In this document: positions 22,379 through 37,868 of the stretch, in pieces
Position numbering within the stretch: position 1 is the stretch's first letter
Layout: each line of letters begins with the position of its first letter
NCBI RefSeq assembly: GCF_002854065.1
Contig: NZ_CP024147.1
Strand: one strand, 5' to 3'
From: Escherichia coli
GTDB lineage: Bacteria; Pseudomonadota; Gammaproteobacteria; Enterobacterales; Enterobacteriaceae
DNA length: 64,000 nucleotides
Made by a program: the position numbers and the translations under genes
The notes under the pieces: generated by a model
Told to the model about the DNA's origin: nothing
Databases searched by the model: none
Seen by the model: the letters and a program-made list of their open reading frames with translations, nothing else

Positions 22379-23877
22379 CAGAAGCGCTCCAGTTCAGGAA
22401 AAGGTAAATGACCGTGATGCACATGCATGGCACCAAATTCAGCACAGCGGTGTAGCGTGGGAATGTTTTTCCCAGGGTTCAGCAAACCATCGGGGTCAAA
22501 CGCCGCCTTGACCGCATGGAAGGTCGTGATTTCATCGCTATTGAACTGGGCGCACATTTGATTGATTTTTTCTCGCCCGATGCCATGTTCCCCACTGATG
22601 CTGCCGCCAACTTCAACGCAGAGTTCCAGGATCTTCCCGCCCAACTCTTCCGCGCGGGCAAATTCACCGGGTTCGTTGGCATCGAAAAGGATTAACGGGT
22701 GCATGTTGCCATCTCCGGCATGAAACACGTTGGCAACACGTAAATCATATTGCTGCGATAAACGGGCAATGCCTTCCAGTACGCCAGGCAGGGCGCGACG
22801 CGGGATGGTGCCATCCATGCAGTAGTAATCCGGGGAGATACGTCCTACCGCCGGGAACGCATTTTTGCGACCGGCCCAGAAACGTACGCGCTCTGCTTCG
22901 TCCTGTGCCAGACGGACGTCAGTCGTGCCCGCTTTCAACAAGATGTCGTTAACCCGCTCGCAGTCTTCCTGTACGTCAGACTCCACGCCGTCCAGCTCGC
23001 ATAACAAAATCGCTTCGGCGTCGACGGGATAACCGGCATGAATAAAATCTTCCGCCGCGCGGATCGACAGGTTATCCATCATCTCCAGCCCGCCGGGGAT
23101 AATGCCATTGGCGATGATGTCACCAACTGCAAGTCCGGCTTTTTCTACCGAGTCAAAGCTTGCTAACAGAACCCGCGCCACGGGCGGCTTCGGCAGCAGT
23201 TTTACCGTCACTTCGGTGGTCACGCCGAGCATACCTTCCGATCCGGTGAACAACGCCAGCAGGTCAAAACCAGGCGAATCCAGCGCATCCGATCCCAGCG
23301 TCAGTGCCTCGCCATCCAGCGTTTGCACTTCAATTTTCAGCAGGTTATGTACGGTCAGACCATATTTCAGGCAGTGGACGCCGCCGGCATTTTCTGCCAC
23401 GTTGCCGCCAATGGAACAGGCGATTTGTGAGGAAGGGTCCGGTGCGTAGTAGAGATTATGCGGTGCAACGGCCTGGGAGATCGCCAGGTTACGCACGCCT
23501 GGCTGCACGCGCGCGCGGCGACCAACGGGGTTAATGTCGAGGATCTCTTTAAAGCGCGCCATCACCAACAACACACCTTTTTCCAGCGGCAGCGCGCCAC
23601 CAGAAAGCCCGGTGCCTGCACCACGGGTCACCACCGGTACACGCAGGCGATGGCAGACAGCCAGAATCGCTGTCACCTGTTCCATCTGCTTAGGCAGAAC
23701 AACCAGTAATGGACGCGTGCGATACGCGCTCAACCCGTCACACTCGTAAGGAATGATCTCCTCATCGGTATGCAGGATCTCCAGTCCAGGGACATGCTCA
23801 CGCAGTGCCATCAGTACCGATGTGCGGTCGACATCGGGTAAAGCGCCATCAAGACGCTCTTCGTACAAGATGCTCAT
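22378..23877 (-). CDS. glcD: Glycolate oxidase subunit GlcD (FAD-linked oxidase), 499 aa
   Basis: Full-length ORF MSILYEERLDGALPDVDRTSVLMALREHVPGLEILHTDEE... Confidence 0.95.
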   Translation of the reverse strand: MSILYEERLDGALPDVDRTSVLMALREHVPGLEILHTDEEIIPYECDGLSAYRTRPLLVVLPKQMEQVTAILAVCHRLRVPVVTRGAGTGLSGGALPLEKGVLLVMARFKEILDINPVGRRARVQPGVRNLAISQAVAPHNLYYAPDPSSQIACSIGGNVAENAGGVHCLKYGLTVHNLLKIEVQTLDGEALTLGSDALDSPGFDLLALFTGSEGMLGVTTEVTVKLLPKPPVARVLLASFDSVEKAGLAVGDIIANGIIPGGLEMMDNLSIRAAEDFIHAGYPVDAEAILLCELDGVESDVQEDCERVNDILLKAGTTDVRLAQDEAERVRFWAGRKNAFPAVGRISPDYYCMDGTIPRRALPGVLEGIARLSQQYDLRVANVFHAGDGNMHPLILFDANEPGEFARAEELGGKILELCVEVGGSISGEHGIGREKINQMCAQFNSDEITTFHAVKAAFDPDGLLNPGKNIPTLHRCAEFGAMHVHHGHLPFPELERF

Positions 23878-24127
23878 GAGTAGGCTTCGCTTTGTTATGT
23901 TGTGTGGCAGCTGATTTTTGCGCGCTGCTTCTGTGAACAGTTATTAAGCGGGCTTTTCGTTTTCGTCTATCTCTTTAGCTACCGGTCAGACCATTTTTTT
24001 TCCAGCTCTGTGACCTTGTCTTGGTTAACTTAATGTTAAATTGATGTAACATAATCACTTGCGTGATGTGCGTGTTTTGCGAGTTAAGAACAGAAAAATT
24101 GGTCCTACCTGTGCACGAGGTCTGGGA

Positions 24128-24892
24128 ATGAAAGATGAACGTCGCCCTATTTGCGAAGTGGTTGCAGAGAGTATCGAACGGTTAATTATCGACGGCGTAC
24201 TGAAGGTCGGTCAGCCGCTTCCCTCGGAACGTCGACTGTGTGAAAAGCTCGGCTTCTCACGCTCCGCACTGCGTGAAGGGCTGACCGTGCTGCGCGGGCG
24301 CGGGATTATTGAAACGGCGCAGGGTCGCGATTCTCGTGTCGCACGGCTTAATCGGGTGCAGGACACCAGTCCGCTGATCCATCTGTTCAGTACGCAACCG
24401 CGAACGCTGTACGATCTGCTCGATGTTCGCGCATTACTGGAGGGCGAATCGGCAAGGCTTGCGGCAACGCTGGGAACGCAGGCTGATTTTGTTGTGATAA
24501 CCCGCTGTTATGAAAAAATGCTCGCCGCCAGTGAGAACAACAAAGAGATTTCGCTGATCGAACATGCGCAGTTGGATCACGCTTTCCATCTCGCCATTTG
24601 TCAGGCTTCTCACAATCAGGTGCTGGTGTTTACGCTGCAATCATTGACCGATCTGATGTTTAATTCAGTGTTTGCCAGCGTAAATAATCTCTACCATCGA
24701 CCACAGCAAAAAAAGCAGATCGATCGCCAGCATGCGCGGATCTACAACGCGGTGTTGCAGCGGCTGCCGCACGTCGCCCAGCGCGCAGCACGCGATCATG
24801 TGCGGACCGTGAAAAAGAATCTCCACGATATCGAGCTGGAAGGCCACCATTTGATTCGCTCGGCGGTGCCGCTGGAGATGAACCAGAGTTAG
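24128..24892 (+). CDS. glcC: GntR-family transcriptional activator of the glc operon, 254 aa
   Basis: ORF in track; start set at MKDERRPICEVVAESIERLIIDGVLKVGQPLPSERRL (ATG 24128); divergent from glcD. Confidence 0.9.
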   Translation: MKDERRPICEVVAESIERLIIDGVLKVGQPLPSERRLCEKLGFSRSALREGLTVLRGRGIIETAQGRDSRVARLNRVQDTSPLIHLFSTQPRTLYDLLDVRALLEGESARLAATLGTQADFVVITRCYEKMLAASENNKEISLIEHAQLDHAFHLAICQASHNQVLVFTLQSLTDLMFNSVFASVNNLYHRPQQKKQIDRQHARIYNAVLQRLPHVAQRAARDHVRTVKKNLHDIELEGHHLIRSAVPLEMNQS

Positions 24893-24898
24893 CTGGTA

Positions 24899-26041
24899 TT
24901 AAATCTGCTTTTCATACAATCGGTAACGCTTGTACGGCTCTGCCCCAATGCGTTCCAGCATGTTATTCATGCCTGTATTGGTTTCGAGGATCCATGACAT
25001 CTCCAGCGCATCGATCTTCCGGCGGGCAAACGGATCGCGTAAGGCTTCAATCAATAACAGCGCAATCACCGGGCCGATGCGGCTGAACTGATACTCGTCC
25101 CGCACGCCCATCAGCGGCACTCGCGCAGTTCGCACACCGCTGACTTTCAAACGCCACAGCAATTTTGCCCAGCCGAAGGGAAAGAGCGATCCGTTCAGAT
25201 CGGCAATCGCCTCGTTGATGTTCGGCAAGCCGACAATAAACGCGCAGGGTGCAGAATCAATCTCAGCGATGTAGATCATATCGTCCGGCACCAGATATTT
25301 AAGTTGATCGCCCATGGTCGCGAATTCATGTTCGGTAAACGGCACAAATCCCCAGTTGTGCTGCCAGCCAGAGTTGAAAATCTCACGCAGGATCTGCATC
25401 TCTTCGGCAAACCGCTGGCGATTGATGCAGCGAATGGTCACCTTTTTGCGCACCTGATCCATCAGTTTTTTTAGCGCCGGAGAGAAAGTGAGATCGGTTC
25501 GCTGCATCCACCACGCCAGTAAATCAATGCCTTTGTGATAACCCAGTTGTTCAATATGCGCGGCATACCACGGTTTGCCGTGTGGCATCATCGCACAGGG
25601 TGGTGTGTCAAAACCTTCAATCAGTAATCCGCTTTCCTGATTGATATTCAGGCTGAAAGGCCCGCTGATCTTACTTGCACCTTGTGACTTCAACCACGCT
25701 TCCGCTGCGCCAAACAACGCGGCAAAAACCTGCGGATCATCAATGGCGTCAATCATTCCGAAATGACCGGTATCTTCACCGTAACGCTCACGGTGCAAGG
25801 TATCTATTTGCGCGGTAATACGCCCAACTATCTGCCCCGCTTTTTTTGCCACCCACGCCTGCCAGATGATATGGTCCGTCCCCGGATTTTTCGCAGACAA
25901 ATGCTCGCTGCGTTCAATGAATAAAGGGGGTATCCAGTTTGGATCATCGGGATAAAGTGATGACGGAAAAGCGATAAATGCCTTAAGGTCATTTTTATTA
26001 ATTACTTTTTCAATTTTGATCATCAGCAGATCGCATTCCAT
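24899..26041 (-). CDS. yghO: YghO-family protein, predicted acyltransferase (GNAT-like), about 375-380 aa
   Basis: Full-length ORF; start ATG at 26041 or 26023; recognised as YghO family; fold assignment is from memory of family annotation. Confidence 0.6.
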   Translation of the reverse strand: MECDLLMIKIEKVINKNDLKAFIAFPSSLYPDDPNWIPPLFIERSEHLSAKNPGTDHIIWQAWVAKKAGQIVGRITAQIDTLHRERYGEDTGHFGMIDAIDDPQVFAALFGAAEAWLKSQGASKISGPFSLNINQESGLLIEGFDTPPCAMMPHGKPWYAAHIEQLGYHKGIDLLAWWMQRTDLTFSPALKKLMDQVRKKVTIRCINRQRFAEEMQILREIFNSGWQHNWGFVPFTEHEFATMGDQLKYLVPDDMIYIAEIDSAPCAFIVGLPNINEAIADLNGSLFPFGWAKLLWRLKVSGVRTARVPLMGVRDEYQFSRIGPVIALLLIEALRDPFARRKIDALEMSWILETNTGMNNMLERIGAEPYKRYRLYEKQI

Positions 26042-26411
26042 AGTTCTGTGGGTAACAAATAATTAACGGTGAAAAACAGGTTGCAACAGCAACGAACGGC
26101 ATCTTAATAATCAACCCAATGAATACAAACGACGAATAAATAGTATTTATTAATGATTACGATAGGGTCAGCGACTACGCAGAAGCGCCACAATGCCTTT
26201 TGTCGATTTAAGGCGACCGGACAAGGCTTCTTCTTAATATATTCATAAATTAAATATCATTCACAATAAAAACAAAAAACTTAAATTCATTATTTAAATC
26301 AATGTTCATTTTCACACCGATGAAAATACTATCTCATTTATCTTTTATGCCTATATAATCCACCGCATTATTGTCATTTTATTTTGGATATCCAATTTTT
26401 TCGTGGTGTAT

Positions 26412-28133
26412 ATGTCTAATAAAATCTTTACGCATTCCCTACCTATGCGCTATGCCGATTTTCCAACGCTGGTTGATGCTTTGGACTACGCCGCTCTGAG
26501 TAGCGCTGGAATGAATTTTTATGACAGACGTTGCCAACTTGAAGATCAACTGGAATATCAGACGTTAAAAGCGCGTGCCGAAGCTGGTGCGAAGCGGTTG
26601 TTATCGCTAAACCTGAAAAAAGGCGATCGCGTGGCGCTGATTGCCGAAACCAGTAGCGGGTTCGTAGAGGCTTTTTTTTCCTGCCAGTATGCCGGCTTAG
26701 TCGCCGTCCCGTTGGCGATTCCAATGGGCGTCGGTCAGCGGGATTCCTGGAGCGCCAAACTGCAGGGTTTACTGGCAAGTTGCCAGCCCGCTGCCATTAT
26801 CACTGGTGATGAGTGGTTGCCGCTGGTCAATGCCGCCACGCATAACAACCCCGAATTGCATGTATTAAGCCACGCCTGGTTTAAGGCATTACCGGAAGCT
26901 GATGTTGCGCTCCAGCGCCCAGTTCCGGACGATATCGCCTACCTCCAGTACACCTCCGGCAGCACCCGTTTTCCCCGTGGCGTCATTATCACCCATCGCG
27001 AAGTGATGGCTAATCTACGTGCTATAAGCCACGATGGCATTAAATTACGCCCTGGCGACCGCTGCGTCTCCTGGCTGCCTTTCTACCATGATATGGGACT
27101 GGTCGGCTTTCTCCTGACCCCGTTCGCCACGCAGCTTTCAGTAGATTATTTGCGCACTCAGGATTTTGCCATGCGTCCTCTGCAATGGCTTAAATTGATC
27201 AGTAAAAATCGCGGCACCGTTTCCGTTGCGCCGCCGTTTGGCTATGAATTGTGCCAGCGCCGCGTGAATGAAAAAGATCTCGCTGAACTGGATCTTTCCT
27301 GCTGGCGCGTCGCTGGTATTGGTGCAGAACCCATCTCCGCAGAACAACTCCATCAATTCGCTGAATGTTTCCGTCAGGTTAACTTTGACGATAAAACTTT
27401 CATGCCGTGCTACGGACTGGCAGAAAATGCGCTGGCTGTCAGTTTCTCTGATGAAGCCTCCGGGGTTGTGGTTAACGAAGTGGATCGCGACATCCTCGAA
27501 TATCAGGGTAAAGCCGTTGCGCCGGGTGCAGAGACACGCGCCGTATCGACTTTCGTCAACTGCGGTAAAGCGTTGCCGGAACATGGTATTGAAATCCGCA
27601 ATGAAGCAGGTATACCTGTCGCGGAACGTGTGGTAGGCCATATTTGCATCTCCGGCCCTAGCCTGATGAGCGGTTACTTTGGCGACCAGGTTTCACAAGA
27701 CGAGATTGCCGCGACGGGCTGGTTAGACACCGGGGACCTCGGTTATCTGCTGGACGGTTATCTGTATGTCACCGGACGCATTAAAGATCTGATTATTATT
27801 CGTGGCCGTAATATCTGGCCGCAGGATATTGAATATATTGCGGAACAGGAACCGGAAATTCATTCTGGCGATGCGATTGCTTTTGTTACCGCCCAGGAAA
27901 AAATCATTTTGCAGATCCAGTGTCGGATCAGCGATGAAGAACGTCGCGGGCAGCTTATCCACGCGCTGGCAGCACGGATCCAAAGCGAATTTGGCGTAAC
28001 AGCGGCTATCGATCTGTTGCCGCCCCACAGTATTCCCCGAACGTCCTCCGGTAAGCCTGCCCGTGCGGAAGCGAAAAAACGTTATCAGAAGGCTTATGCT
28101 GCCAGTCTTCATGTGCAGGAATCCCTGGCATGA
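26412..28133 (+). CDS. Fatty acyl-AMP ligase / acyl-CoA synthetase-like adenylating enzyme, about 573 aa
   Basis: AMP-binding core motif YTSGSTRFPRGVIITH and the overall architecture of ANL-superfamily enzymes; first gene of a 4-gene operon. Confidence 0.75.
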   Translation: MSNKIFTHSLPMRYADFPTLVDALDYAALSSAGMNFYDRRCQLEDQLEYQTLKARAEAGAKRLLSLNLKKGDRVALIAETSSGFVEAFFSCQYAGLVAVPLAIPMGVGQRDSWSAKLQGLLASCQPAAIITGDEWLPLVNAATHNNPELHVLSHAWFKALPEADVALQRPVPDDIAYLQYTSGSTRFPRGVIITHREVMANLRAISHDGIKLRPGDRCVSWLPFYHDMGLVGFLLTPFATQLSVDYLRTQDFAMRPLQWLKLISKNRGTVSVAPPFGYELCQRRVNEKDLAELDLSCWRVAGIGAEPISAEQLHQFAECFRQVNFDDKTFMPCYGLAENALAVSFSDEASGVVVNEVDRDILEYQGKAVAPGAETRAVSTFVNCGKALPEHGIEIRNEAGIPVAERVVGHICISGPSLMSGYFGDQVSQDEIAATGWLDTGDLGYLLDGYLYVTGRIKDLIIIRGRNIWPQDIEYIAEQEPEIHSGDAIAFVTAQEKIILQIQCRISDEERRGQLIHALAARIQSEFGVTAAIDLLPPHSIPRTSSGKPARAEAKKRYQKAYAASLHVQESLA

Positions 28134-29044
28134 ATCAAACTGTCGCGGTGACGGGCGCTACCGGGTTTATCGGTAAATATATTATCGATAACCTGCTCAC
28201 CCGCGGCTTTCACGTTCGCGCATTGACGCGTACTGCCCGCGCTCACGTCAATGATAATCTTACTTGGGTGCGCGGTTCGCTGGAAGATACACATTCGCTT
28301 AGCGAACTGGTTGCCGGAGCCAGCGCGGTGGTCCATTGCGCCGGGCAAGTGCGCGGACACAAAGAAGAGATTTTTACCCACTGTAACGTTGACGGCAGCC
28401 TGCGCCTGATGCAAGCAGCAAAAGAGAGCGGCTTTTGCCAACGTTTTCTGTTTATCTCTTCGCTGGCGGCGCGCCATCCCGAGCTCTCCTGGTACGCAAA
28501 TTCCAAACACGTCGCCGAACAACGGCTGACGGCAATGGCTGACGAAATTACGCTGGGCGTTTTTCGCCCGACAGCCGTGTATGGTCCCGGCGATAAAGAG
28601 TTAAAACCGCTGTTTGACTGGATGCTGCGCGGCCTGCTGCCACGACTTGGTGCACCAGATACACAGTTCTCTTTCCTGCATGTCACCGATTTTGCGCAAG
28701 CAGTGGGTCAGTGGTTAAGCGCCGAAACTGTACAGACGCAAACCTATGAATTATGCGATGGCGTCGCTGGCGGCTATGACTGGCAACGCGTACGACAGCT
28801 TGCCGCCGAAGCCCGTTGTGGTTCCGTGCGGATGGTTGGCCTTCCTCTGCCGGTACTCACCTGCCTTGCGGATATCAGTACTGCGTTGAGTCGCCTGGCA
28901 GGTAAAGAACCTATGCTGACCCGCTCGAAAATTCGTGAATTAACCCACGCCGACTGGTCGGCAAGTAATAACCGTATTTCTGAAGATATTAATTGTTTTC
29001 CCGGGATTAGCCTGGAACACGCATTACGCAACGGGCTATTTTGA
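28130..29044 (+). CDS. NAD(P)-dependent epimerase/dehydratase-family (SDR) oxidoreductase, 304 aa
   Basis: N-terminal Rossmann motif VTGATGFIGKYI; start overlaps the upstream stop (ATGA). Confidence 0.7.
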   Translation: MNQTVAVTGATGFIGKYIIDNLLTRGFHVRALTRTARAHVNDNLTWVRGSLEDTHSLSELVAGASAVVHCAGQVRGHKEEIFTHCNVDGSLRLMQAAKESGFCQRFLFISSLAARHPELSWYANSKHVAEQRLTAMADEITLGVFRPTAVYGPGDKELKPLFDWMLRGLLPRLGAPDTQFSFLHVTDFAQAVGQWLSAETVQTQTYELCDGVAGGYDWQRVRQLAAEARCGSVRMVGLPLPVLTCLADISTALSRLAGKEPMLTRSKIRELTHADWSASNNRISEDINCFPGISLEHALRNGLF

Positions 29045-29075
29045 TTGTCTTGTTTAAAGGTGTGTTAACGTTTCT

Positions 29076-29324
29076 ATGGTAAATCGTGAAATAGTAATGG
29101 ATTACATCCTTTCCTGTTTACAGGATTTGGTCGAAAACGGTGTGGAAATTAAGCCCGACAGCGATCTCGTCAACGATCTTGGCCTGGAGTCGATCAAAGT
29201 GATGGATCTCTTAATGATGCTGGAAGACAGATTCGATATTTCCATTCCTATTAATATTCTGCTGGATGTCAAAACCCCTGCGCAATTAATGGAAACTCTA
29301 CTTCCATGGCTGGAGAATAAATAA
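29076..29324 (+). CDS. Acyl carrier protein-like small protein, about 75-82 aa
   Basis: Phosphopantetheine-attachment-like motif DLGLESIKVMDL; acidic helical protein; start ambiguous (29076 or 29097). Confidence 0.6.
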   Translation: MVNREIVMDYILSCLQDLVENGVEIKPDSDLVNDLGLESIKVMDLLMMLEDRFDISIPINILLDVKTPAQLMETLLPWLENK

Positions 29325-30496
29325 TGGGGCTATACGATAAATATGCGCGCCTTGCTGGCGAGCGACTGCAATTTAGTGACAACGGGTTAACACCGTTTGG
29401 CACCTGTATTGATGAAGTGTATTCCGCCACCGAAGGCCGGATCGGCAATAAAAAAGTGATTCTGGCCGGGACCAATAATTACCTCGGTTTAACCTTTAAT
29501 CATGATGCCATCGCCGAAGGTCAGGCAGCGTTAGCGGCCCAAGGCACCGGCACCACCGGTTCTCGTATGGCAAACGGCAGTTATGCGCCGCACCTGGCGT
29601 TAGAGAAAGAGATTGCCGAGTTTTTCAATCGCCCTACCGCTATCGTTTTTTCAACCGGTTATACCGCTAATTTAGGCGTCATCAGCGCACTTGCCGACCA
29701 TAACGCCGTGGTGTTACTGGATGCCGACAGCCACGCCAGTATTTATGACGCCTGTTCTCTCGGTGGCGCGGAAATTATTCGTTTCCGCCATAACGATGCT
29801 AAAGATCTGGAACGGCGCATGGTTCGCCTCGGTGAACGGGCGAAAGAGGCGATTATCATCGTTGAGGGTATCTACAGCATGCTCGGTGACGTTGCGCCGC
29901 TGGCGGAAATTGTTGATATCAAACGTCGTCTCGGTGGTTATTTGATTGTCGATGAAGCGCATTCGTTTGGCGTGTTAGGCGCAACGGGGCGCGGACTGGC
30001 TGAAGCTGTCGGCGTTGAAGATGATGTGGATATTATCGTTGGCACCTTCAGTAAAAGTCTGGCCTCGATTGGCGGTTTTGCTGTCGGTTCGGAAGCGATG
30101 GAAGTACTGCGCTACGGCAGCCGCCCGTATATTTTTACCGCCTCTCCTTCTCCGTCCTGCATTGCGACCGTGCGCTCGTCGTTAAAAACTATTGCCACAC
30201 AACCAGAGCTGCGGCAAAAGCTGATGGATAACGCCAACCATCTGTATGACGGTCTGCAAAAACTGGGTTATGAGTTAAGTTCACATATTAGCCCGGTAGT
30301 GCCGGTAATAATCGGTTCGAAAGAGGAAGGTTTACGCATCTGGCGCGAGCTTATTTCGCTGGGCGTTTATGTGAATCTTATCCTGCCACCTGCCGCGCCT
30401 GCAGGCATCACGCTGCTGCGCTGTAGCGTAAACGCTGCCCACAGTCGTGAGCAAATCGATGCCATCATTCAGGCATTTGCTACTCTGAAGCAGTAA
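29324..30496 (+). CDS. PLP-dependent alpha-oxoamine synthase family enzyme (BioF / serine palmitoyltransferase / CqsA-like), 390 aa
   Basis: Class-II aminotransferase fold with lysine motif GTFSKSLASIGGF; start overlaps the ACP stop. Confidence 0.75.
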   Translation: MGLYDKYARLAGERLQFSDNGLTPFGTCIDEVYSATEGRIGNKKVILAGTNNYLGLTFNHDAIAEGQAALAAQGTGTTGSRMANGSYAPHLALEKEIAEFFNRPTAIVFSTGYTANLGVISALADHNAVVLLDADSHASIYDACSLGGAEIIRFRHNDAKDLERRMVRLGERAKEAIIIVEGIYSMLGDVAPLAEIVDIKRRLGGYLIVDEAHSFGVLGATGRGLAEAVGVEDDVDIIVGTFSKSLASIGGFAVGSEAMEVLRYGSRPYIFTASPSPSCIATVRSSLKTIATQPELRQKLMDNANHLYDGLQKLGYELSSHISPVVPVIIGSKEEGLRIWRELISLGVYVNLILPPAAPAGITLLRCSVNAAHSREQIDAIIQAFATLKQ

Positions 30497-30530
30497 TGTG
30501 AGCCCGCCGTGGTGTTGCGCCACGGCGGGT

Positions 30531-31610
30531 TTAATGTTGTCTGTCATACCAATACACCAGGCTCAACGCCACCAGCACAAACGCTATCGGTAAACCGAGC
30601 GCGGTAACAGGTGCGCTCAACGCAAATAGCAATCCCAGATTGACCATGATTTGATAGCTGATCCAGGTGAGTAAGCCAACGATGACACCTACAGCGAGAC
30701 GGCTACCCATCCCTGGCGAGCGCGGGGCACTAAAGGTAAACGGCACAGCCAGCAAAATCATCGCCAGGGTCAGGATGGGTTGCCCCAGTTTTTCCCACAG
30801 TGCAAGGCGGTATTCGCTGCTGGGTTGCCCGGTTTCCTGCAAATAATGGATGTAATGATTAAGCTGACGGACAGAAAAAGTATTCCCCGGCATCGATAGC
30901 TCTTCAAGATCCATACTGGTGAAGGCCGATTGCCAGGCAAGATTATCTGATGTTTCCAGCGTTTCTTTGCCATTCAGCCATTTTTTATGATTCACACCAT
31001 GCAGGATCCACGTTTTGTCGTCTTCAATGGTGGCACTGCGTGCATAAATGTAGGATTCGAGCGAAAGATCATCACGATAATGAAAAATCTCCACGCGCAC
31101 AGGCTGGCCCTGCTCGTTCAGCGATTTTACCGTCACAAATTCATTACCGCGCCTGGCCCACAGCATATTGCCGGTAATGTCATCGTCCTCACCCAACGCA
31201 GTGGCAGTCGATTTGATTTGCAGCGCCTGTTGCTGCAATGGCGACGCTACCCACTCATCTATCGCGCCTAACGAAACAGTCCACAATATCCCGGCAACCA
31301 GCGCCACCAGTGCAATACGGAAGATAGAAAACCCCGTGCTGCGAATGGCGGTAAGCTCACTGTTTTTCGATAACTGCCCCAGGCCAACAATCCCTCCCAA
31401 TAAGGCGATAAACGGCGAAAGTTCGACCAGTGTGCGCGGTAAGGTCATTAGCACCACCAGCACCGCCTGAGTCCAGCGATAACCGCCCGGGCTGACATCA
31501 TCCAGTTCGTTAATCAGGTTGAAGGTGGTAAAAAGCGGCAGCAATAGCCCTGCGGCGGCGGCAAAACCGAGAAAGAGATGACGGATTAAATAGCGACTGA
31601 AAACATTCAT
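30531..31610 (-). CDS. LptF/LptG-family (YjgP/YjgQ) permease paralog, about 359 aa
   Basis: N-terminus MNVFSRYLIRHLFLGFAAAAGLL resembles LptF/LptG; polytopic with a large central soluble loop; start set at the Met with overlap to the upstream gene stop. Confidence 0.55.
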   Translation of the reverse strand: MNVFSRYLIRHLFLGFAAAAGLLLPLFTTFNLINELDDVSPGGYRWTQAVLVVLMTLPRTLVELSPFIALLGGIVGLGQLSKNSELTAIRSTGFSIFRIALVALVAGILWTVSLGAIDEWVASPLQQQALQIKSTATALGEDDDITGNMLWARRGNEFVTVKSLNEQGQPVRVEIFHYRDDLSLESYIYARSATIEDDKTWILHGVNHKKWLNGKETLETSDNLAWQSAFTSMDLEELSMPGNTFSVRQLNHYIHYLQETGQPSSEYRLALWEKLGQPILTLAMILLAVPFTFSAPRSPGMGSRLAVGVIVGLLTWISYQIMVNLGLLFALSAPVTALGLPIAFVLVALSLVYWYDRQH

Positions 31611-32677
31611 CGGGAAAATTTCTGCAGCAAAGAGAAGTCGCGTGCGACCAGCATCAGCAGGCCCATTAGCATGAGTCCGGGCACTAACCACAAACCAGGA
31701 ATGAGAGGAATCGCGCCGTTAGCCACCAGCGTACGGCAGACGTCGCCGCCATAAAAAATGGCAATAAACAGCAACGTCAGTGGCAATAACGTTGAAAATC
31801 GCCCCTGCCGCGGTTTTACCCGACTTAATGAAATGGCCAGCAGCGCCATCAACAATGCTGTCAGGCCACGGCTTTGTCGCCATTGCAGTTCGGCATGATC
31901 GGCTGGAAAGACGGAGCGCGCCAGCTCCGTGACCGATTTCGCTTTGCGTTTGACGTTAGGGCTTTGATCCAGCGGATTCAGATGTAATTGCAGATTACGG
32001 TAGATCTGTTCGTTGTCGTCACGCCCCTGATGATCGAGAAGATAGGCAGTGCCGTTGTGCAACATAACAGTCGGTTTCTCGGGTGATGGGTCAACCACAT
32101 CAACCGAACGGGCGCGGAAAATGCGGGTTCGATTGGCAGTAGAAGTATAAATCAGCGCGTCAGTCAGGCGATTATTATCCTGATCAACCGTCTGCGAAAG
32201 GATCATTCGTCCGTTATCGTTAGTGTTAAATTTCTTTGCCCGCAACTGGCGAACATCCAGCTCCGACTGCGACTGCTGCTCCAGTTGATAAATCTGCGCA
32301 TAAGCCCACGGACGACCATACATCGACAGAAGGGTGACAAAAATACTTAGCGGTATCGCCAGATAAAGAACGGCTTTGTACAAGCGTCCCGGACTGCCCC
32401 CCGCCGCAGAGATAGCGGTAATTTCCGAGTCGGTATACATCTGCCCTAGCGTCACGCCAACTGACACATACAGTCCAACAGGTAACAACATCTCCAGTGC
32501 AATCAGCACTTTGTAGAAAACGATATCCAGCACAACATCAAGTGCTAATGTCCCATTTGCCGCTTCGGTCAGATAACGCTGTGCGGAGTAGCTGGCGAAA
32601 ATAAAGATCAGAAAACCGACGATAATCAGCACCAGACGGCGCGTACCACGCATGATGTAGTGTTCAACCAGCTTCAT
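31607..32677 (-). CDS. LptF/LptG-family (YjgP/YjgQ) permease paralog, 356 aa
   Basis: Same architecture as the adjacent gene; translationally coupled pair. Confidence 0.55.
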   Translation of the reverse strand: MKLVEHYIMRGTRRLVLIIVGFLIFIFASYSAQRYLTEAANGTLALDVVLDIVFYKVLIALEMLLPVGLYVSVGVTLGQMYTDSEITAISAAGGSPGRLYKAVLYLAIPLSIFVTLLSMYGRPWAYAQIYQLEQQSQSELDVRQLRAKKFNTNDNGRMILSQTVDQDNNRLTDALIYTSTANRTRIFRARSVDVVDPSPEKPTVMLHNGTAYLLDHQGRDDNEQIYRNLQLHLNPLDQSPNVKRKAKSVTELARSVFPADHAELQWRQSRGLTALLMALLAISLSRVKPRQGRFSTLLPLTLLFIAIFYGGDVCRTLVANGAIPLIPGLWLVPGLMLMGLLMLVARDFSLLQKFSR

Positions 32678-32707
32678 CTCACTAACGCCCTCAATCCTTT
32701 GAATTTT

Positions 32708-33271
32708 TTATTCATTGATCAGTTTCTGCGCCAGCGCAATGACATGATCTACCTCTTCCGGCGTCAGGCTGCCGTCCTTTGCCCACTGAATTTGCCCAGC
32801 TTTATTCAGCACCAGAATGGTTGAACTCTGCTCCGGCAAGCGCCAGGCAACGCGTCCCTGTCCATTGCCGTCAATAACGAATTGCGCCCACGGATAGCGG
32901 CGTTTATTTTTTTCGATTTTGCCAACGACAAAATAGCCAGTACCAAAGATGGCATCATCAGTGTTCACAATGGTGGTGGGCTGAAAACGATCCTGTGGAA
33001 AGTTTGCCGCTTCAACCGCTTTAATTAACAGTGAGTTCTTCTTCTTCGCTGACTTACGCCCGGCGATATACTGGATAATGCGGACTTTTCCCGCCAATTG
33101 TGTGCTGTTCCACTTTTGGTAGTGAATTTCGTCGTCGCTATTCAGAAGCAGCTCGCCGCCTTCCTGAATATAAACAGGGGTAACCGTTTTGCCAGTGACG
33201 AAATTGTGTGCCTGCACACCCGGGGCTAATAGCATGATAATCAGCGCAATAATCAAACGAGATGACATCAT
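32708..33271 (-). CDS. YtfJ-family secreted/periplasmic protein paralog, 187 aa
   Basis: Signal peptide MMSSRLIIALIIMLLAPGVQA; conserved blocks TTIVNTDDAI and WAKDGSLTPEEV resemble YtfJ (from memory). Confidence 0.5.
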   Translation of the reverse strand: MMSSRLIIALIIMLLAPGVQAHNFVTGKTVTPVYIQEGGELLLNSDDEIHYQKWNSTQLAGKVRIIQYIAGRKSAKKKNSLLIKAVEAANFPQDRFQPTTIVNTDDAIFGTGYFVVGKIEKNKRRYPWAQFVIDGNGQGRVAWRLPEQSSTILVLNKAGQIQWAKDGSLTPEEVDHVIALAQKLINE

Positions 33272-33279
33272 TGCTCCGG

Positions 33280-34104
33280 TTATAGCGGAAAACGCGAAAT
33301 CAGCAGCTCTAAGCGCTGACGAATATCGCTATCCAGCGCCACCGGTGCATCATACGACTGGCGGTTTTCCATATCATCCGCCACCATGTCGTCGTGTTTA
33401 TCCCCCATCAGGCCATTAATGGCGGCGAGGAAACGGGAAATCTGTAACGCCTCTTTATTTTCAGGATCAAGCGATCTTAAGGTGTCGTAATAAGAAACCT
33501 GCTGGCTGATGATTTTTCGCACATCATGAAATTCCCTGCCGGTTAGTCGCGGTTTGGCAATTATCTCTTTCAGGGCATGCATTTGCTTTTGCCGATAGGC
33601 AATAAAACCGCTTACGCTTTCTAACTGGCTATGGCGTAATGAATAGTTCACCAACGACCAGACCGGAGAGCTTAAATAAATTCGTAACAGGTTGCCGTAA
33701 TACGACACAATATTTTTCTTACCGTTACGAAATCCGTCCTGAAAACGTCCCAGAAAAACGGTCGTTTTGCCGAATAAAAATCCGGCCTGATGCTTCTTTA
33801 AATACAGCCGTTGCGCAAAACGCAGGTGCTTGTAGCGCGCTCGCATGTATTTAAACTGTTTACGCTCGTCTGTCGTCAGCTCATCGCCTTTGGCTTGTTT
33901 GCGAATTAAACGAAGTAATTCCTGGCGATCAACGCCATTGAGCCAGAATTGCAGGCATAACGCGTAATTATCATGGATGATTTCGGTGGTACAACTTAGT
34001 GCGATAGTCGGCGGCAAACTGACCTGGGCATCAACAACATCATCTTCCTCAATCGCAACAAATAGATGCTCGCTCGCCTCAAGCGGGAAATATTTTCTCA
34101 TCAT
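33280..34104 (-). CDS. Hypothetical protein, 274 aa, no recognised domain
   Basis: ORF in track, tightly packed between flanking genes of the same operon; coding-like composition. Confidence 0.5.
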   Translation of the reverse strand: MMRKYFPLEASEHLFVAIEEDDVVDAQVSLPPTIALSCTTEIIHDNYALCLQFWLNGVDRQELLRLIRKQAKGDELTTDERKQFKYMRARYKHLRFAQRLYLKKHQAGFLFGKTTVFLGRFQDGFRNGKKNIVSYYGNLLRIYLSSPVWSLVNYSLRHSQLESVSGFIAYRQKQMHALKEIIAKPRLTGREFHDVRKIISQQVSYYDTLRSLDPENKEALQISRFLAAINGLMGDKHDDMVADDMENRQSYDAPVALDSDIRQRLELLISRFPL

Positions 34105-35453
34105 CAGGATTTCTCTCCGGCTGCGTTATAAAGCAAGGAATGGCGCTGAAAAAATGCCTTTAAGGTCGGAATTAGCGAAAGCACCACATCCAGGCATTGA
34201 CCGCCGAAATAAGCAAACGCTGCTCCCAGCACGCCAAACAGATGACAGAACATGAACAGCAATACGATGTAGCCGATTGAGGCGATGGTTTGCGCCACGA
34301 GAAAAGCGCGCTGTTTTCCCGCCATCAATAGCAATGACTCCTGAGGGAAGCCCAGCATCGAGATCACAATTGCGCCCAGCATCACCTGAATCAGGTCATA
34401 CGCTTCGAGATACTTAACGCCAAACACCAGCGAAATGAGCGGCTTGCCGACGATCAACACCGCGAGCGCCACCAGAATACCGATTCCGCCCGCCAGTAAA
34501 CCGGACTTCACACCTAACAACCACGGTCTGGTGGTGCGCGGATCTAAACGCATCACCTCTGGGTAAAAACTTTTACCCAGCAAACCCGCTGGCGTTCCGG
34601 CGGCGTCGAAGAATGTCATGGCGATTTTAAATAACCCGGCGGCAGCGGGTCCTAACACGATCCCCACCAACACTGTGCTGCACGAGTTACGTGCCGACCA
34701 GATGGAGTGGGCAATGTTGGTTGACCAGACAAAACTCCACGCGCCTTTAATGTGTCGGGCAGACTCAAACAGATTCAATTTGAAGGCGTTATGGATATTT
34801 CTGCGGCGTAATTCGCGCGCGGCAAACCACCAGTACATGGTGCCGCCAACCAGATTCGACACGTACCAGGCAATAACAAAACCCGCAAAACCAAAGTCAA
34901 AATACCAGGCTGCGACGCTCCCCGCTGCGCGCAGAAAAGGTTTCGTCGCCTGCTGTACAGCAATCAAATCAAAGCGATCTACCGCACGCAGAATGCCGGT
35001 CGGCGTGGAGGAAGCCATTGAAGGAATGAGCGTGCAATACAGCGCCGCCAGCCAAAAGCTTTGGTCATCCAGACCTAATGAATGGGAAAGGAATGGCAGT
35101 AAGGCAATGCCGCCGACAATCGCCACCGCGCCGCTGACGATATCCAGCGAGAAGGAAAATGAGACGACATTGCGAAATTGCTGCGGATTATTGTTGGTCA
35201 AGGCTGGCGTTCCGTACTGAACCACCAGCTGCCATGTCTGAAACTTAATAAAATCGCTGATCGACTTGGCGTACGATTGTACAATCACCAGTACGCCAAA
35301 CATGGCGGGCGTCATCCCTTTACCGGCACACGAGAGCGCCAACAGACCCAGCAAGGCGCTCACGACATTACTGGAGCCTAACCAGGCGCTATTGCGAATA
35401 ATGGTGCGAAACGCGCCATCTGCAAACCAATGTTTGATGTTAAAACCCGCCAA
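34104..35453 (-). CDS. yghQ: Polytopic membrane protein, putative MOP-superfamily (Wzx/MATE-like) flippase; start codon uncertain (TTG in track)
   Basis: About 449-aa ORF with multiple hydrophobic segments; gene symbol by synteny with yghR/S/T. Confidence 0.5.
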   Translation of the reverse strand: MAGFNIKHWFADGAFRTIIRNSAWLGSSNVVSALLGLLALSCAGKGMTPAMFGVLVIVQSYAKSISDFIKFQTWQLVVQYGTPALTNNNPQQFRNVVSFSFSLDIVSGAVAIVGGIALLPFLSHSLGLDDQSFWLAALYCTLIPSMASSTPTGILRAVDRFDLIAVQQATKPFLRAAGSVAAWYFDFGFAGFVIAWYVSNLVGGTMYWWFAARELRRRNIHNAFKLNLFESARHIKGAWSFVWSTNIAHSIWSARNSCSTVLVGIVLGPAAAGLFKIAMTFFDAAGTPAGLLGKSFYPEVMRLDPRTTRPWLLGVKSGLLAGGIGILVALAVLIVGKPLISLVFGVKYLEAYDLIQVMLGAIVISMLGFPQESLLLMAGKQRAFLVAQTIASIGYIVLLFMFCHLFGVLGAAFAYFGGQCLDVVLSLIPTLKAFFQRHSLLYNAAGEKS

Positions 35454-35498
35454 TTCAGCCTGACCTTATCGTTGATAGTAAAAAGTATCCCGCCAGCC

Positions 35499-36257
35499 TT
35501 AAGTTAAACTTCGGCGGTCAGAAACGATGGCAACCAGAGAAACCGCCTTCTGTGCCTGTTCCAGCACTTCGCTGTAGGGCGCTCTGGAATCAATCTCAAG
35601 AATTTTTGTGCCGTTATAGCCAATCGTCGACATAACACCGATTTTGTCCTGCAGCTCGGCATAGTCATGGTCAGGCTTGCGGGAGATGGCAGTCTCAATA
35701 TCAATGCCCAGGCGAATAATTAATTCCGGGCGATATTGCGCCATTTGTTGGTATAAACGCCGTTCGCGCTGCGCCAGAAACATGCTTATTTTCCCGGTCG
35801 CACGTTCGACGCCAATCCCCGGTCCATCATAATAAAAGCCCGAAATTTCAGCCTGCGGGAAGCGATCGCTGACCACCAGAACGCCACTTTGCGCCAGTCG
35901 CTGAACCTTGCGTAGATTCGCCATTCTTCGCAGCGAGAAGCAGTACATAATCACCGCCGCCCATAGCGCCGGAGATTTGGTTTTCATGCTTTGGGTTTTC
36001 GAGGATTTGGCCGCCAGTCGCCGTTCCAGCCAGACGCCAACCAACGGCAATCGTTTTATTTTGTCGCCGTCTTCGCCCGAGAGCAGCCCCAAATAGCGGC
36101 GCTCGGTTTGCCAGTGTTGTTGCAGCGATTTCACCAGGTCGGTGGTCAGTGTGGATTTACCGGTGCCATCACACCCGACCACCGCAATCAGCCCCGGAAT
36201 GTAGTTGGGCTGCGGCGCGGTTGTACTAATAACAGTTTGTGTTTGTAGTGCATCCAT
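35499..36257 (-). CDS. yghR: P-loop NTPase (kinase-like), paralog 1 of 3, 252 aa
   Basis: Walker A IAVVGCDGTGKSTLT; shares SDRFPQ...DGP and RKPDH blocks with the next two genes. Confidence 0.65.
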   Translation of the reverse strand: MDALQTQTVISTTAPQPNYIPGLIAVVGCDGTGKSTLTTDLVKSLQQHWQTERRYLGLLSGEDGDKIKRLPLVGVWLERRLAAKSSKTQSMKTKSPALWAAVIMYCFSLRRMANLRKVQRLAQSGVLVVSDRFPQAEISGFYYDGPGIGVERATGKISMFLAQRERRLYQQMAQYRPELIIRLGIDIETAISRKPDHDYAELQDKIGVMSTIGYNGTKILEIDSRAPYSEVLEQAQKAVSLVAIVSDRRSLT

Positions 36258-36288
36258 TCGTTAAATCATCCCCTATCCATTTTGGTGA

Positions 36289-37002
36289 TCAGGAAAGCGC
36301 GGCGTGAATTGCGCGTAGTGACGCTTGCATAATTTCATCGGCTGGTTGCCGACCATCCAGTTCAAGGATCTTTGCGCCATTGAATGTCAGTTGCGGCGTA
36401 ACGGCGATTTTTTCCTGTAACGCTGCCAGTTGGTGGTCAGGTTTACGCGCAAACGCGGTTTGTTCATCAATGCCAAGACGAATCAACAATACGGGCAAAT
36501 AAGACGCCATCCATTGGTACAGCTTCAGCTCGCGCTGCCTTAACATTTTTATCCAACCGTTACCGCCCGTGGTTTTTGCCAATTGCGGGCCATCAAAGCG
36601 AAAACCCGGCACTTCAACCTGCGGGTAGCGGTCGGTGATGAGCAGATAGCCTTGCTGGCTTTTACACAACATTTTGCGAAACTTGTACGCCCGCCAGCAG
36701 GAAAGCAGATAGATAACCAGCGCAGTAATATTGCCAGGCGGTGTTGAGGGTTTTTCGTGCACATGTGCCGCTTTACTTCGCAGATAACGCCCACAAGGTG
36801 CGCCAATAACAGGGAGCTGTGAAATCCATTCGCCAATTCGCCCGGACGATTGCCCGAGATAAATGCGTTCTGTTGGCATTCTTGCTGCCAGTTCATTTAC
36901 CAGGCTTGCCGTGAGGGTCGATTTACCTGAACCATCACATCCTACAATGGCAATAACACGCACTGGCGTGGAATTAATTATTGACATATTACGTTGATTC
37001 AC
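36289..37002 (-). CDS. yghS: P-loop NTPase (kinase-like), paralog 2 of 3, 237 aa
   Basis: Walker A IAIVGCDGSGKSTLT; TDRYPQ...DGP; RKPDH. Confidence 0.65.
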   Translation of the reverse strand: MNQRNMSIINSTPVRVIAIVGCDGSGKSTLTASLVNELAARMPTERIYLGQSSGRIGEWISQLPVIGAPCGRYLRSKAAHVHEKPSTPPGNITALVIYLLSCWRAYKFRKMLCKSQQGYLLITDRYPQVEVPGFRFDGPQLAKTTGGNGWIKMLRQRELKLYQWMASYLPVLLIRLGIDEQTAFARKPDHQLAALQEKIAVTPQLTFNGAKILELDGRQPADEIMQASLRAIHAALS

Positions 37003-37175
37003 GAAAAACCCGGCAGTAAATAATGTATTGAATATTACGTGATCCGTGCTCAGAATATCCGTTCAACCTTATTGTGACAATGGTTAATTGTGACATTGAC
37101 CTGAATTACGCTTTCATAAAAACATATTAACCAAATAAATATTTTGGATGGATATTTAAATTTAAGGATATATTC

Positions 37176-37868
37176 ATGCAGTCAATAACACCTCCATTAA
37201 TTGCCGTTATTGGTAGCGATGGTTCAGGCAAGTCAACGGTGTGTGAACATCTCATTACCGTTGTCGAAAAATATGGTGCTGCCGAAAGAGTTCATTTAGG
37301 AAAACAAGCCGGAAATGTCGGTCGTGCAGTGACAAAATTACCGTTGATGGGAAAATCCTTACATAAAACAATTGAACGAAATCAGGTGAAAACAGCAAAA
37401 AAATTGCCAGGACCAGTTCCGGCGCTGGTAATTACAGCGTTTGTCGCCCGTCGCTTACTGCGCTTTCTTCATATGCTTGCCTGTCGTCGTCGCGGGTTAA
37501 TTGTTCTAACCGACCGTTATCCTCAGGACCAAATTCCGGGCGCTTACGATGGTACGGTGTTCCCACCTAACGTTGAAGGTAGTCGTTTTGTCTCATGGCT
37601 GGCAAGCCAGGAACGTAAAGCGTTTCACTGGATGGCGAGCCATAAGCCTGATCTGGTCATCAAACTCAATGTTGACCTTGAAGTTGCCTGCGCGCGTAAA
37701 CCCGACCATAAACGGGAATCGCTGGCGAGGAAGATTGCCATAACGCCACAGTTAACCTTTGGTGGTGCACAACTGGTTGATATCGATGCTAATCAGCCAC
37801 TGGAAAAGGTGCTGGTTGATGCAGAAAAAGCGATTACGGATTTTATGACCGCGCGTGGTTATCACTAG
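37176..37868 (+). CDS. yghT: P-loop NTPase (kinase-like), paralog 3 of 3, 230 aa
   Basis: Walker [26 protein letters not shown]; divergent from yghS. Confidence 0.65.

Follow-up and report, generated by a model that had tools for sequence, protein, structure and literature searches.

The four genes at positions 26412-30496 of the window, by which we mean the whole stretch of 64,000 nucleotides of Escherichia coli DNA that was analysed, very probably constitute the sphingolipid (dihydroceramide) synthesis module of proteobacteria as it occurs in E. coli. Earlier work had described this locus as the sphingolipid-precursor operon of E. coli strains other than K-12, and its biochemistry is known. 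[quoted passage not shown]

The list of open reading frames confirmed that the four genes are intact, co-directional and overlapping on the + strand. Gene 1, the predicted fatty acyl-AMP ligase (FAAL), is located at 26412..28133 or from 26403 (ORF of 573 or 576 aa), gene 2, a predicted SDR, at 28130..29044 (304 aa), gene 3, the predicted ACP, at 29076..29324 (82 aa) and gene 4, the predicted Spt, at 29324..30496 (390 aa). The stop and start codons of genes 1 and 2 share an ATGA at 28130-28133 and those of genes 3 and 4 a TAATG at 29322-29326. For gene 1 the start codon is uncertain: the ATG at 26412 agrees with the 3PBK construct and the NCBIfam profile, while RefSeq takes the ATG at 26445. 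All motifs quoted in the initial annotation were found: gene 1 has YTSGSTRFPRGVIITH at residue 180, gene 2 has VTGATGFIGKYI at residue 7, gene 3 has DLGLESIKV at residue 34 and gene 4 has GTFSKS at residue 240. The matches of the four genes to NCBIfam and Pfam profiles were far above chance level. A hairpin terminator at 30499..30533 (16-pair stem, 10 G-C) ends the operon and is common to the convergent spt and lptG2 genes. The divergent, AT-rich intergenic region of 370 bp at 26042..26411 (GC = 0.34 across 26000-26499) is a putative promoter region; sigma-70-like matches were not commoner there than in shuffled sequence, an Rfam search gave no match and a repeat search showed nothing notable. 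Of 5426 complete E. coli genomes, 4136 contain this region and 4065 carry the RefSeq labels fatty acyl-AMP ligase, epimerase-family protein, ACP and spt.

On NF006624, the fatty acyl-AMP ligase model of NCBIfam (cut-off 600), gene 1 scored 872.9 bits; against PDB 3PBK it scored 1290 bits, 8 of the 573 residues aligned being different (about 99% identity), and it showed 98% identity to its E. coli B orthologue. Judged by these matches, gene 1 is EcFAAL, a fatty acyl-AMP ligase/acyl-ACP synthetase. According to a review (PMC11837247), lauroyl- and myristoyl-adenylate are bound in 3PBK, and a C12 fatty acid was loaded in vitro onto holo-EcACP by EcFAAL (PMC8460268). Gene 3, which matches its E. 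coli B counterpart with 100% identity, has its carrier serine at residue 39 (DLGLES) and is, on sequence grounds, the dedicated acyl carrier protein AcpR; ECD_02853 of BL21(DE3) was reported to carry 4'-phosphopantetheine (PMC9386255).

Gene 4 scored 600 bits on the curated serine palmitoyltransferase model NF047599 of NCBIfam (cut-off 500), its top NCBIfam model being 'SerpalmtaseBetaP', and it shares 99.2% identity with its E. coli B counterpart. The catalytic residues H137, D210, H213 and K244 are conserved, K244 being the PLP lysine of GTFSKS, and both this lysine and the carrier serine Ser39 of gene 3, whose presence the initial annotation had made a test of its reading, are in place. In the PPAxP loop, Arg378 of the Sphingomonas paucimobilis SPT, which we take to bind the serine carboxylate, is a Leu in the E. 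coli clade and in all Enterobacterales Spt homologues, and substrate handling may therefore differ in detail.

The Pfam searches suggested at the outset matched gene 2 to Epimerase (3.7e-23) and gene 3 to PP-binding (1.5e-13). The best PDB sequence matches of gene 2 were mostly 39 kDa/NDUFA9 subunits of complex I (E about 3e-12), and its TGxxGxxG and YxxxK motifs are intact, with TGATGFIG at residues 8-15 and YANSK at residues 122-126. The ceramide reductase CerR has been described as an NDUFA9-like extended SDR (PMC11087976), and gene 2 is predicted to be an SDR of this kind, a CerR/Epi homologue acting as a 3-keto reductase. No export signal was visible in gene 2, in which the Rossmann strand starts already at residue 4, whereas Caulobacter CerR was reported to be periplasmic (PMC11087976), and this difference counts against the dihydroceramide reading.

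The divergent yghO gene (24899..26041, - strand) encodes a predicted N-acyltransferase, proposed as a bacterial ceramide synthase (bCerS/Aca homologue) and is named aca (ECD_02850) in PMC9386255. YghO gave no match in Pfam, NCBIfam or PDB sequence searches, and the best PDB matches of the fold of its AlphaFold2 model (pLDDT 95.8) were tandem GNAT acyltransferases (2wpw, E 1e-15; 7q3a, TM 0.63); YghO thus models as a tandem GNAT, which is newly seen here. Beyond the terminator, lptG2 (30531..31610, - strand; 306 bits on TIGR04408) and lptF2 (31607..32677, - strand; 318 bits on TIGR04407) encode second LptG- and LptF-type permeases, candidate subunits of a sphingolipid exporter. LptG2 scored only about 144 bits against the solved LptG chains and is therefore a distant paralogue, and LptF2 scored only about 94-114 bits against those of LptF. 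Within 10 kb of yghO homologues, lptG2 was present at 47 and lptF2 at 49 of 80 loci; the role of Caulobacter LptG2 is treated in bioRxiv 10.64898/2026.04.12.717747. Three accessory genes follow on the - strand (32708..35453), encoding a YtfJ-family protein (212 bits on TIGR01626), a 274-aa protein and the MOP-family flippase YghQ (weak MOP flippase match). In 11-15 of 80 loci, almost all of them from Enterobacterales, they are found together with the spt module, and their membership of the pathway is something that we only infer.

In the proposed pathway, EcFAAL/AasR would adenylate a free long-chain fatty acid and the acyl group would then be taken up by the phosphopantetheine arm of AcpR, attached at Ser39, instead of by CoA (step 1), after which Spt, with PLP held as a Schiff base by K244, would convert acyl-AcpR and L-serine to 3-oxo-sphinganine and CO2 (step 2). 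The NDUFA9-like SDR would reduce the 3-keto group and YghO would attach a second, amide-linked acyl chain, the two jointly giving dihydroceramide in either order (steps 3 and 4), and LptF2/LptG2 would probably draw the lipid out of the inner membrane for transfer to the outer membrane (step 5). Experiments on the E. coli B orthologues, with 98-100% identity to the proteins here, have shown steps 1 and 2 (PMC9386255), and step 1 was also shown with an EcFAAL-EcACP pair (PMC8460268). Steps 3 to 5 we infer from homology, from the fold and from the conservation of the gene neighbourhood. For the SDR and YghO, the roles in E. coli are predicted from homology only. Keto reduction and N-acylation by YghO, both foreseen in the initial annotation, agree with the protein families, but published accounts disagree on which comes first (PMC11087976 versus PMC9386255).

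Padilla-Gómez et al. (2022; PMC9386255) reported that ECD_02851, ECD_02853 and ECD_02854 (AasR, AcpR and SPT) of BL21(DE3) yield 3-oxo-sphinganine, that AasR requires its cognate AcpR and that, with L-[14C]serine, SPT gave a product co-migrating with 3-oxo-sphinganine, acyl-AcpR being the preferred donor. They assigned ECD_02852 as the reductase and yghO as the N-acyltransferase, and described, in BL21 expressing the AasR/AcpR/SPT trio, compounds whose migration was like that of sphinganine and ceramide; TLC co-migration served in that report to identify the E. coli products. The same report found 3-oxo-sphinganine undetectable in extracts of BL21(DE3) with an empty vector, so the chromosomal operon appears to be silent in those laboratory conditions.

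A role of gene 4 as a BioF, Kbl or CqsA type enzyme, directing the operon to a biotin precursor, aminoacetone or a CAI-1-like autoinducer, would account for the common fold and PLP chemistry and for significant matches to all three families. However, gene 4 remained under the curated cut-offs of bioF (334 vs 426), Kbl (298 vs 460) and CqsA (222 vs 428) while passing that of SPT, the S. paucimobilis SPT 2JG2 led the PDB ranking (2e-111, against 4e-59 for Kbl, about 1e-50 for BioF and 6e-35 for CqsA), the genes adjoining the operon are glc and lpt with no bio genes, and the E. coli B enzyme was reported to condense serine (PMC9386255). The profile scores and the published assay refute this identity, which we regard as having almost no chance of being correct; by its scores and residues, gene 4 is a serine palmitoyltransferase. 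The initial annotation had hedged between sphingoid and CAI-1-type products, and only the sphingoid side stood. It is also very unlikely that the operon is an evolutionary relic, functional if over-expressed but never expressed naturally and without a product, as might be suggested by the absence of SPT activity from empty-vector BL21 extracts (PMC9386255), by the loss of the region from K-12 through an IS5-associated deletion of 8.4 kb without obvious harm, and by the lack of a clear sigma-70 site in the AT-rich promoter region. Against this, all genes of the locus are under strong purifying selection, a new observation (dN/dS 0.02-0.14 in all seven genes, dS 0.13-0.50, vs one divergent Escherichia), and the operon, with intact ORFs, is present in about 75% of complete E. 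coli genomes. The architecture is moreover retained across Enterobacterales genera and beyond: the layout yghO(-) | faal-sdr-acp-spt(+), newly described here, was present in 31 of 33 loci with all four genes, from Enterobacterales, Pseudomonas, Nitrospira, Gemmatimonadetes, Methylomirabilis and Deltaproteobacteria.

Somewhat less improbable, though still unlikely, is that the chemistry proceeds via 3-oxo-sphinganine as described but that in nature E. coli ends the pathway in something other than a membrane ceramide; a long-chain base (free or modified), an alanine- or glycine-derived 1-deoxy base and a condition-specific signalling amino lipid jointly share this small likelihood. Our literature search found no paper reporting a sphingolipid from unmodified E. 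coli, Leu replaces Arg378, SPTs are reported to take alanine and glycine too, far less efficiently (PMC10196870), and the genes identified at the locus include no Caulobacter head-group genes and, instead, uncharacterised Enterobacterales-specific accessory genes. On the other side, YghO and the LptF2/G2 pair are tightly linked to the module across phyla, which points to a membrane lipid with two chains, bound for the outer membrane, and in PMC9386255 L-serine served the E. coli SPT as a substrate in vitro and the trio-expressing BL21 gave the sphinganine- and ceramide-like compounds. A dihydroceramide module is the reading that we retain.

Comparison with known systems showed that ECD_02850-ECD_02854 of E. 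coli BL21(DE3) (aca/yghO, aasR, epi, acpR and spt; PMC9386255) is this same locus on the chromosome of a second strain, with the same gene order and neighbours. Identity between the E. coli B and the window proteins is 96-100% and the differences are allelic only, the SDR being the most divergent (95.7%). Gene 1 is nearly identical to the EcFAAL of 3PBK (Zhang et al. 2011, via PMC8460268 and PMC11837247), which adenylates fatty acids and passes them to holo-ACP, not CoA; the FAAL papers examined give the enzyme no place in sphingolipid synthesis, and a text search of the 2025 review PMC11837247 did not find the word "sphingolipid". BioF, Kbl and CqsA resemble gene 4 in fold, PLP-lysine and decarboxylative Claisen chemistry but use other acyl donors and amino acids, without a dedicated FAAL/ACP pair. 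The nearest solved relatives of gene 4, the SPTs of S. paucimobilis and S. wittichii (2JG2, 2X8U), have the same catalytic His/Asp/His/Lys, whereas in Sphingomonas aasR is distant from acpR-spt. In Nitrosomonas eutropha, Neut_0458-0461 (aasR, epi, acpR and spt) have consecutive locus tags and the order of E. coli, but the yghO homologue sits apart (Neut_1100), and in the Nitrosomonas loci retrieved it adjoins lptF2/lptG2, not spt. Caulobacter crescentus CC_1162-1165 and CC_1154 (Spt, AcpR, CerR/Epi, AasR and bCerS/Aca) comprise the same five enzyme types, and a second LptF/LptG pair (LptF2/LptG2) is likewise common to both, a likeness at the level of gene types. Caulobacter additionally encodes the head-group enzymes CpgA/B/C and LptC2, whereas the E. 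coli locus has the YtfJ-family protein, the 274-aa protein, yghQ and three P-loop kinase-like proteins.

The window covers the E. coli chromosome around glcDEFGB-glcC-yghO, and four intact genes occupy the plus strand at 26412-30496: the ligase EcFAAL/AasR (gene 1, 26412..28133), a short-chain dehydrogenase (SDR; gene 2, 28130..29044), an acyl carrier protein (ACP; gene 3, 29076..29324) and Spt (gene 4, 29324..30496). The initial annotation had described them as co-directional with overlapping or near-overlapping stop and start codons, which we confirmed for genes 1 and 2 (ATGA, 28130-28133) and for genes 3 and 4 (TAATG, 29322-29326); genes 2 and 3 are spaced by 31 bp. The four motifs that it quoted were all found in place, the catalytic lysine (K244 of Spt) and the carrier serine of the ACP were both present, and profile searches of the kind that it proposed matched FAAL, Epimerase, PP-binding and SPT-type alpha-oxoamine synthase models. 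A hairpin with a 16-bp stem (30499-30533) lies 3' of gene 4. The spacer between the operon and the divergent yghO gene (24899..26041, minus strand) is 370 bp long and AT-rich (GC 0.34), and this intergenic region contains no meaningful repeats. Apart from the hairpin, promoter and terminator scans gave no excess over shuffled sequences, and an Rfam scan of 23800-36000 returned nothing credible (a single chance match, E 0.11).

The operon is real and was correctly read, but it has already been described and annotated. The earlier statement that no product had been assigned to the locus was mistaken, because RefSeq labels the genes as fatty acyl-AMP ligase, NAD-dependent epimerase-family protein, acyl carrier protein and spt, and because exactly this locus was studied in E. 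coli BL21(DE3) by Padilla-Gómez et al. 2022 (PMC9386255). Identity between the window proteins and their counterparts in an E. coli B derivative is 96-100%, the ACP being unchanged (100%).

[quoted passage not shown] Gene 1 is thus assigned to the fatty acyl-AMP ligases, as the specialised acyl-ACP synthetase of the module. It would adenylate fatty acids and reject CoA by means of the FAAL-specific insertion and a blocked CoA pocket, since it is nearly identical to a structure that was used to analyse those features. EcFAAL was reported to load a C12 fatty acid onto holo-'EcACP' and to reject CoA (PMC8460268), 'EcACP' being that paper's label and not necessarily the gene 3 ACP, and the 3PBK crystal contains lauroyl- and myristoyl-adenylate according to a 2025 FAAL review (PMC11837247). 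The same E. coli protein has two literatures, as EcFAAL (3PBK, PMC8460268, PMC11837247) and as AasR (PMC9386255), which do not cite each other in these papers; sphingolipids are not mentioned in the review. The start of the ligase gene is ambiguous (26403-26447): the reading frame opens at GTG 26403, ATG 26412 is backed by the 3PBK construct and the NCBIfam profile, and RefSeq uses ATG 26445 (562 aa). None of the three starts is preceded by an obvious Shine-Dalgarno sequence.

Gene 2 encodes an extended short-chain dehydrogenase (Pfam Epimerase, 3.7e-23) with intact TGATGFIG (TGxxGxxG) and YANSK (YxxxK) motifs, and its closest solved sequence relatives are mostly complex I 39 kDa/NDUFA9 subunits (about E 3e-12). 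These features are those of the NDUFA9-like, NAD-binding, epimerase-family predicted reductase (CerR/Epi) of the proteobacterial sphingolipid module. Gene 3 carries a phosphopantetheine-attachment domain (PP-binding, 1.5e-13) with its serine, Ser39, within DLGLES, and provides the dedicated acp directly upstream of spt in one operon. The 4'-phosphopantetheine group was demonstrated on the BL21(DE3) counterpart AcpR, ECD_02853, in PMC9386255. A 443-aa 'eukprot' entry, 98% identical to E. coli Spt and containing both PP-binding and Aminotran_1_2 domains, looks like bacterial contamination in which the overlapping acp and spt genes were merged in one call.

The class of gene 4 was decided by comparing its scores on models of the alpha-oxoamine synthase family. 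It reached 600 bits on NF047599, the NCBI curated serine palmitoyltransferase equivalog (cut-off 500), and its best PDB relatives were the bacterial SPTs of Sphingomonas (2e-111), far above Kbl, BioF and CqsA. An 8-amino-7-oxononanoate synthase (BioF) would share the fold, and gene 4 does score 334 bits on TIGR00858, but this misses the cut-off of 426, and its neighbours are glc, yghO and lpt genes rather than a biotin operon. The autoinducer synthase CqsA (alpha-hydroxyketone synthesis) and the glycine C-acetyltransferase Kbl were likewise matched below their cut-offs (222 bits on NF005526 vs 428, and 298 bits on NF005394 vs 460, respectively); the PDB match to CqsA was 6e-35 vs 2e-111 for SPT, and Kbl also ranked below SPT. 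We therefore reject the BioF, Kbl and CqsA readings. A sulfonolipid enzyme (cysteate acyltransferase) is rejected as well: it was matched through PDB 28eh at just 5e-60, and the E. coli B enzyme takes serine.

The serine palmitoyltransferase assignment agrees with the alignment to 2JG2, in which K244, H137, D210 and H213 of Spt correspond to the catalytic K265, H159, D231 and H234, so that gene 4 is predicted to possess the PLP Schiff-base lysine and the catalytic His/Asp/His residues. The active-site loop at about residues 351-360 read LILPPAAPAG in 112 of the 120 closest homologues, and all named carriers of this loop were Enterobacterales. The S. paucimobilis SPT has MARPPATPAG instead, and E. 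coli Spt has a leucine at the position equivalent to its Arg378, a residue that contacts the serine carboxylate.

YghO gave no match in Pfam, NCBIfam or PDB sequence searches, and its family was therefore reached solely through structure prediction. The AlphaFold2 model, built with an alignment of 63 diverse homologues, had a pLDDT of 95.8, and its best PDB fold matches were tandem-GNAT acyltransferases (E 1e-15, TM up to 0.63). A tandem-GNAT YghO would fit the published bacterial ceramide synthase, an acyl-CoA N-acyltransferase in PMC9386255, the paper from which we also take the homology of YghO to Caulobacter CC_1154; the model thus points to a GNAT-type candidate N-acyltransferase (bCerS/Aca) genetically linked to spt. 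Some representatives of the family are much longer (784, 630 and 940 aa, among homologue proteins P0121, P0132, P0191 and P0317), which suggests fusions to other domains. The genomic contexts of distant representatives were mostly short, uninformative metagenomic contigs; two contexts were suggestive. Shimwellia pseudoproteus has two yghO homologues (loci L008 and L019), one of 83% identity in a full spt locus and one of 74% identity with no module genes within 10 kb.

The biochemical route proposed in the initial annotation was right. Adenylation, ACP loading and condensation with serine have been published for near-identical E. coli B proteins. A fatty acid would be adenylated and transferred to the dedicated ACP, and the PLP-dependent condensation of acyl-ACP with serine would yield 3-oxo-sphinganine. 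In PMC9386255, ECD_02851 (AasR) was active solely with its cognate AcpR, and ECD_02854 (SPT) converted L-[14C]serine to a product co-migrating with 3-oxo-sphinganine on TLC, with a preference for acyl-AcpR over acyl-CoA or acyl-AcpP as donor. YghO would then add the N-linked acyl chain and the SDR would reduce the 3-keto group, giving dihydroceramide; the same paper proposes yghO (ECD_02850) as the N-acyltransferase and ECD_02852 as the keto-reductase, and credits ceramide-like TLC spots obtained with the E. coli B orthologues to 'intrinsic enzymes'.

The literature disagrees on whether N-acylation or reduction comes first. In the scheme of the Klein laboratory, acylation precedes reduction and CerR is periplasmic, with an unidentified electron donor in Caulobacter (PMC11087976); the Geiger laboratory favours reduction first (PMC9386255). 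In the E. coli counterpart of CerR (28130-29044) the Rossmann beta-strand and glycine motif occupy residues 4-15, too close to the N-terminus for a Sec or Tat signal to precede them, and hence no export signal is visible. A signal-less SDR does not settle the order.

We then examined conservation with a scan of one genome per species, in which the YghO query was an alignment of 11 closer sequences. Homologues of YghO were found in 80 loci, from Enterobacterales, Pseudomonas, Nitrosomonas, Nitrospira, Gemmatimonadetes, Methylomirabilis, Desulfobacterales, Geobacteraceae and Roseovarius. Counting homologues no more than 10 kb away from yghO, we found the ligase in 45 of these loci, the SDR and Spt in 39 each and the ACP in 38, and a further LptF and LptG in 49 and 47, respectively. 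Short contigs account for many of the loci that lack such neighbours. The layout with yghO on one strand and faal-sdr-acp-spt on the opposite strand was conserved in 31 of the 33 loci holding all four operon genes, and Serratia liquefaciens has the arrangement of the window. Comparison with a divergent Escherichia genome gave dN/dS values of 0.02-0.14 (dS 0.13-0.50) across all seven genes, namely the four of the operon, yghO and the lptF2/lptG2 pair; the module is kept by selection and is not decaying.

At least 80% of a 5.8-kb query of the locus was present in 4065 of 5426 complete E. coli genomes (about 75%), the carriers including B strains and Nissle as well as UTI89 and O157-type isolates, these last two going by the names of loci or records. 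K-12-type genomes have an IS5 element in place of window positions 26002-34384 (8.4 kb) and retain glcC and most of yghO. This deletion removes the first codons of yghO, the entire operon, lptG2, lptF2, the YtfJ-family gene, the gene for a 274-aa protein and the 3' end of yghQ, which explains why the locus is unfamiliar to K-12 workers.

The second LptG/LptF permease pair (30531-32677, minus strand) is convergent to spt and scored 306 and 318 bits on the TIGR LptG and LptF models, respectively. Since the two proteins reached just 94-144 bits against solved LptF/G chains, they are distant paralogues. In Nitrosomonas the yghO homologue adjoins an lptF2/lptG2 pair, not spt. LptF2/G2 are sphingolipid exporters in Caulobacter according to a 2026 preprint (bioRxiv 10.64898/2026.04.12.717747), which also depicts a 'sphingolipid operon' of E. 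coli UTI89 alongside its Caulobacter and S. wittichii counterparts. The linkage of lptF2/lptG2 to yghO fits that report, and by analogy LptF2/LptG2 may act with LptB in export.

Six further genes (32708-37868) accompany the spt module in 9-10 Enterobacterales genera and not in other phyla, in a different order in Serratia. They encode a YtfJ-family protein (32708-33271), the 274-aa protein (33280-34104, minus strand), the MOP-family flippase YghQ (34104-35453) and the P-loop proteins YghR, YghS and YghT (35499-37868), the last three with weak dTMP-kinase-like matches. These genes are candidates for head-group or transport steps. The 274-aa protein had no Pfam or NCBIfam match; its AlphaFold2 model (10-sequence alignment, pLDDT 91) was an all-helical bundle whose top PDB fold match, the polyphosphate-binding CHAD domain 6qv5 (E 0.12, TM 0.48), is too weak for the CHAD family to be assigned. 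Arg, Lys and His are invariant at many positions of the protein, and a homologue of 51% identity adjoins the yghO homologue in Luteibacter (locus L083). PADLOC defence models did not match YghO, the YtfJ-like protein or the 274-aa protein, and gave two very weak matches for YghR (E 2e-4 and 2e-3).

The long-standing view has been that few bacteria have sphingolipids and that E. coli has none. Yet the predicted ceramide module, along with a candidate exporter pair of the Lpt type, is intact and maintained by selection in about three quarters of the complete E. coli genomes. Our literature searches brought up no sphingolipid described from unmodified E. coli, and the operon appears silent under standard conditions because empty-vector BL21 extracts had no SPT activity in PMC9386255. 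We suggest tentatively, and with more doubt than confidence, that a ceramide-based lipid is made for the outer membrane by most E. coli in nature, and by many other Enterobacterales, in circumstances that laboratory culture does not reproduce. Its head group and its export would depend on the flippase YghQ and on YghR/S/T, on the periplasmic YtfJ-family and helical 274-aa proteins, and on LptF2/G2. If so, the textbook E. coli without sphingolipids would merely reflect what K-12 lost in its IS5-associated deletion.

The present analysis adds the tandem-GNAT fold of YghO, the 80-locus scan, the conserved layout and the dN/dS values; it adds no new system, because the enzymology of the first steps was already published. 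Whether, when and with which head group the outer membrane of wild E. coli contains a sphingolipid bears on envelope biology, on permeability to polymyxin and other antibiotics and on host interactions, and it is of practical relevance because BL21(DE3), the standard expression host, has the genes. Compared with the known system of Caulobacter, whose locus contains cpg genes, the Enterobacterales loci contain instead the YtfJ-family, 274-aa helical, yghQ and YghR/S/T genes.
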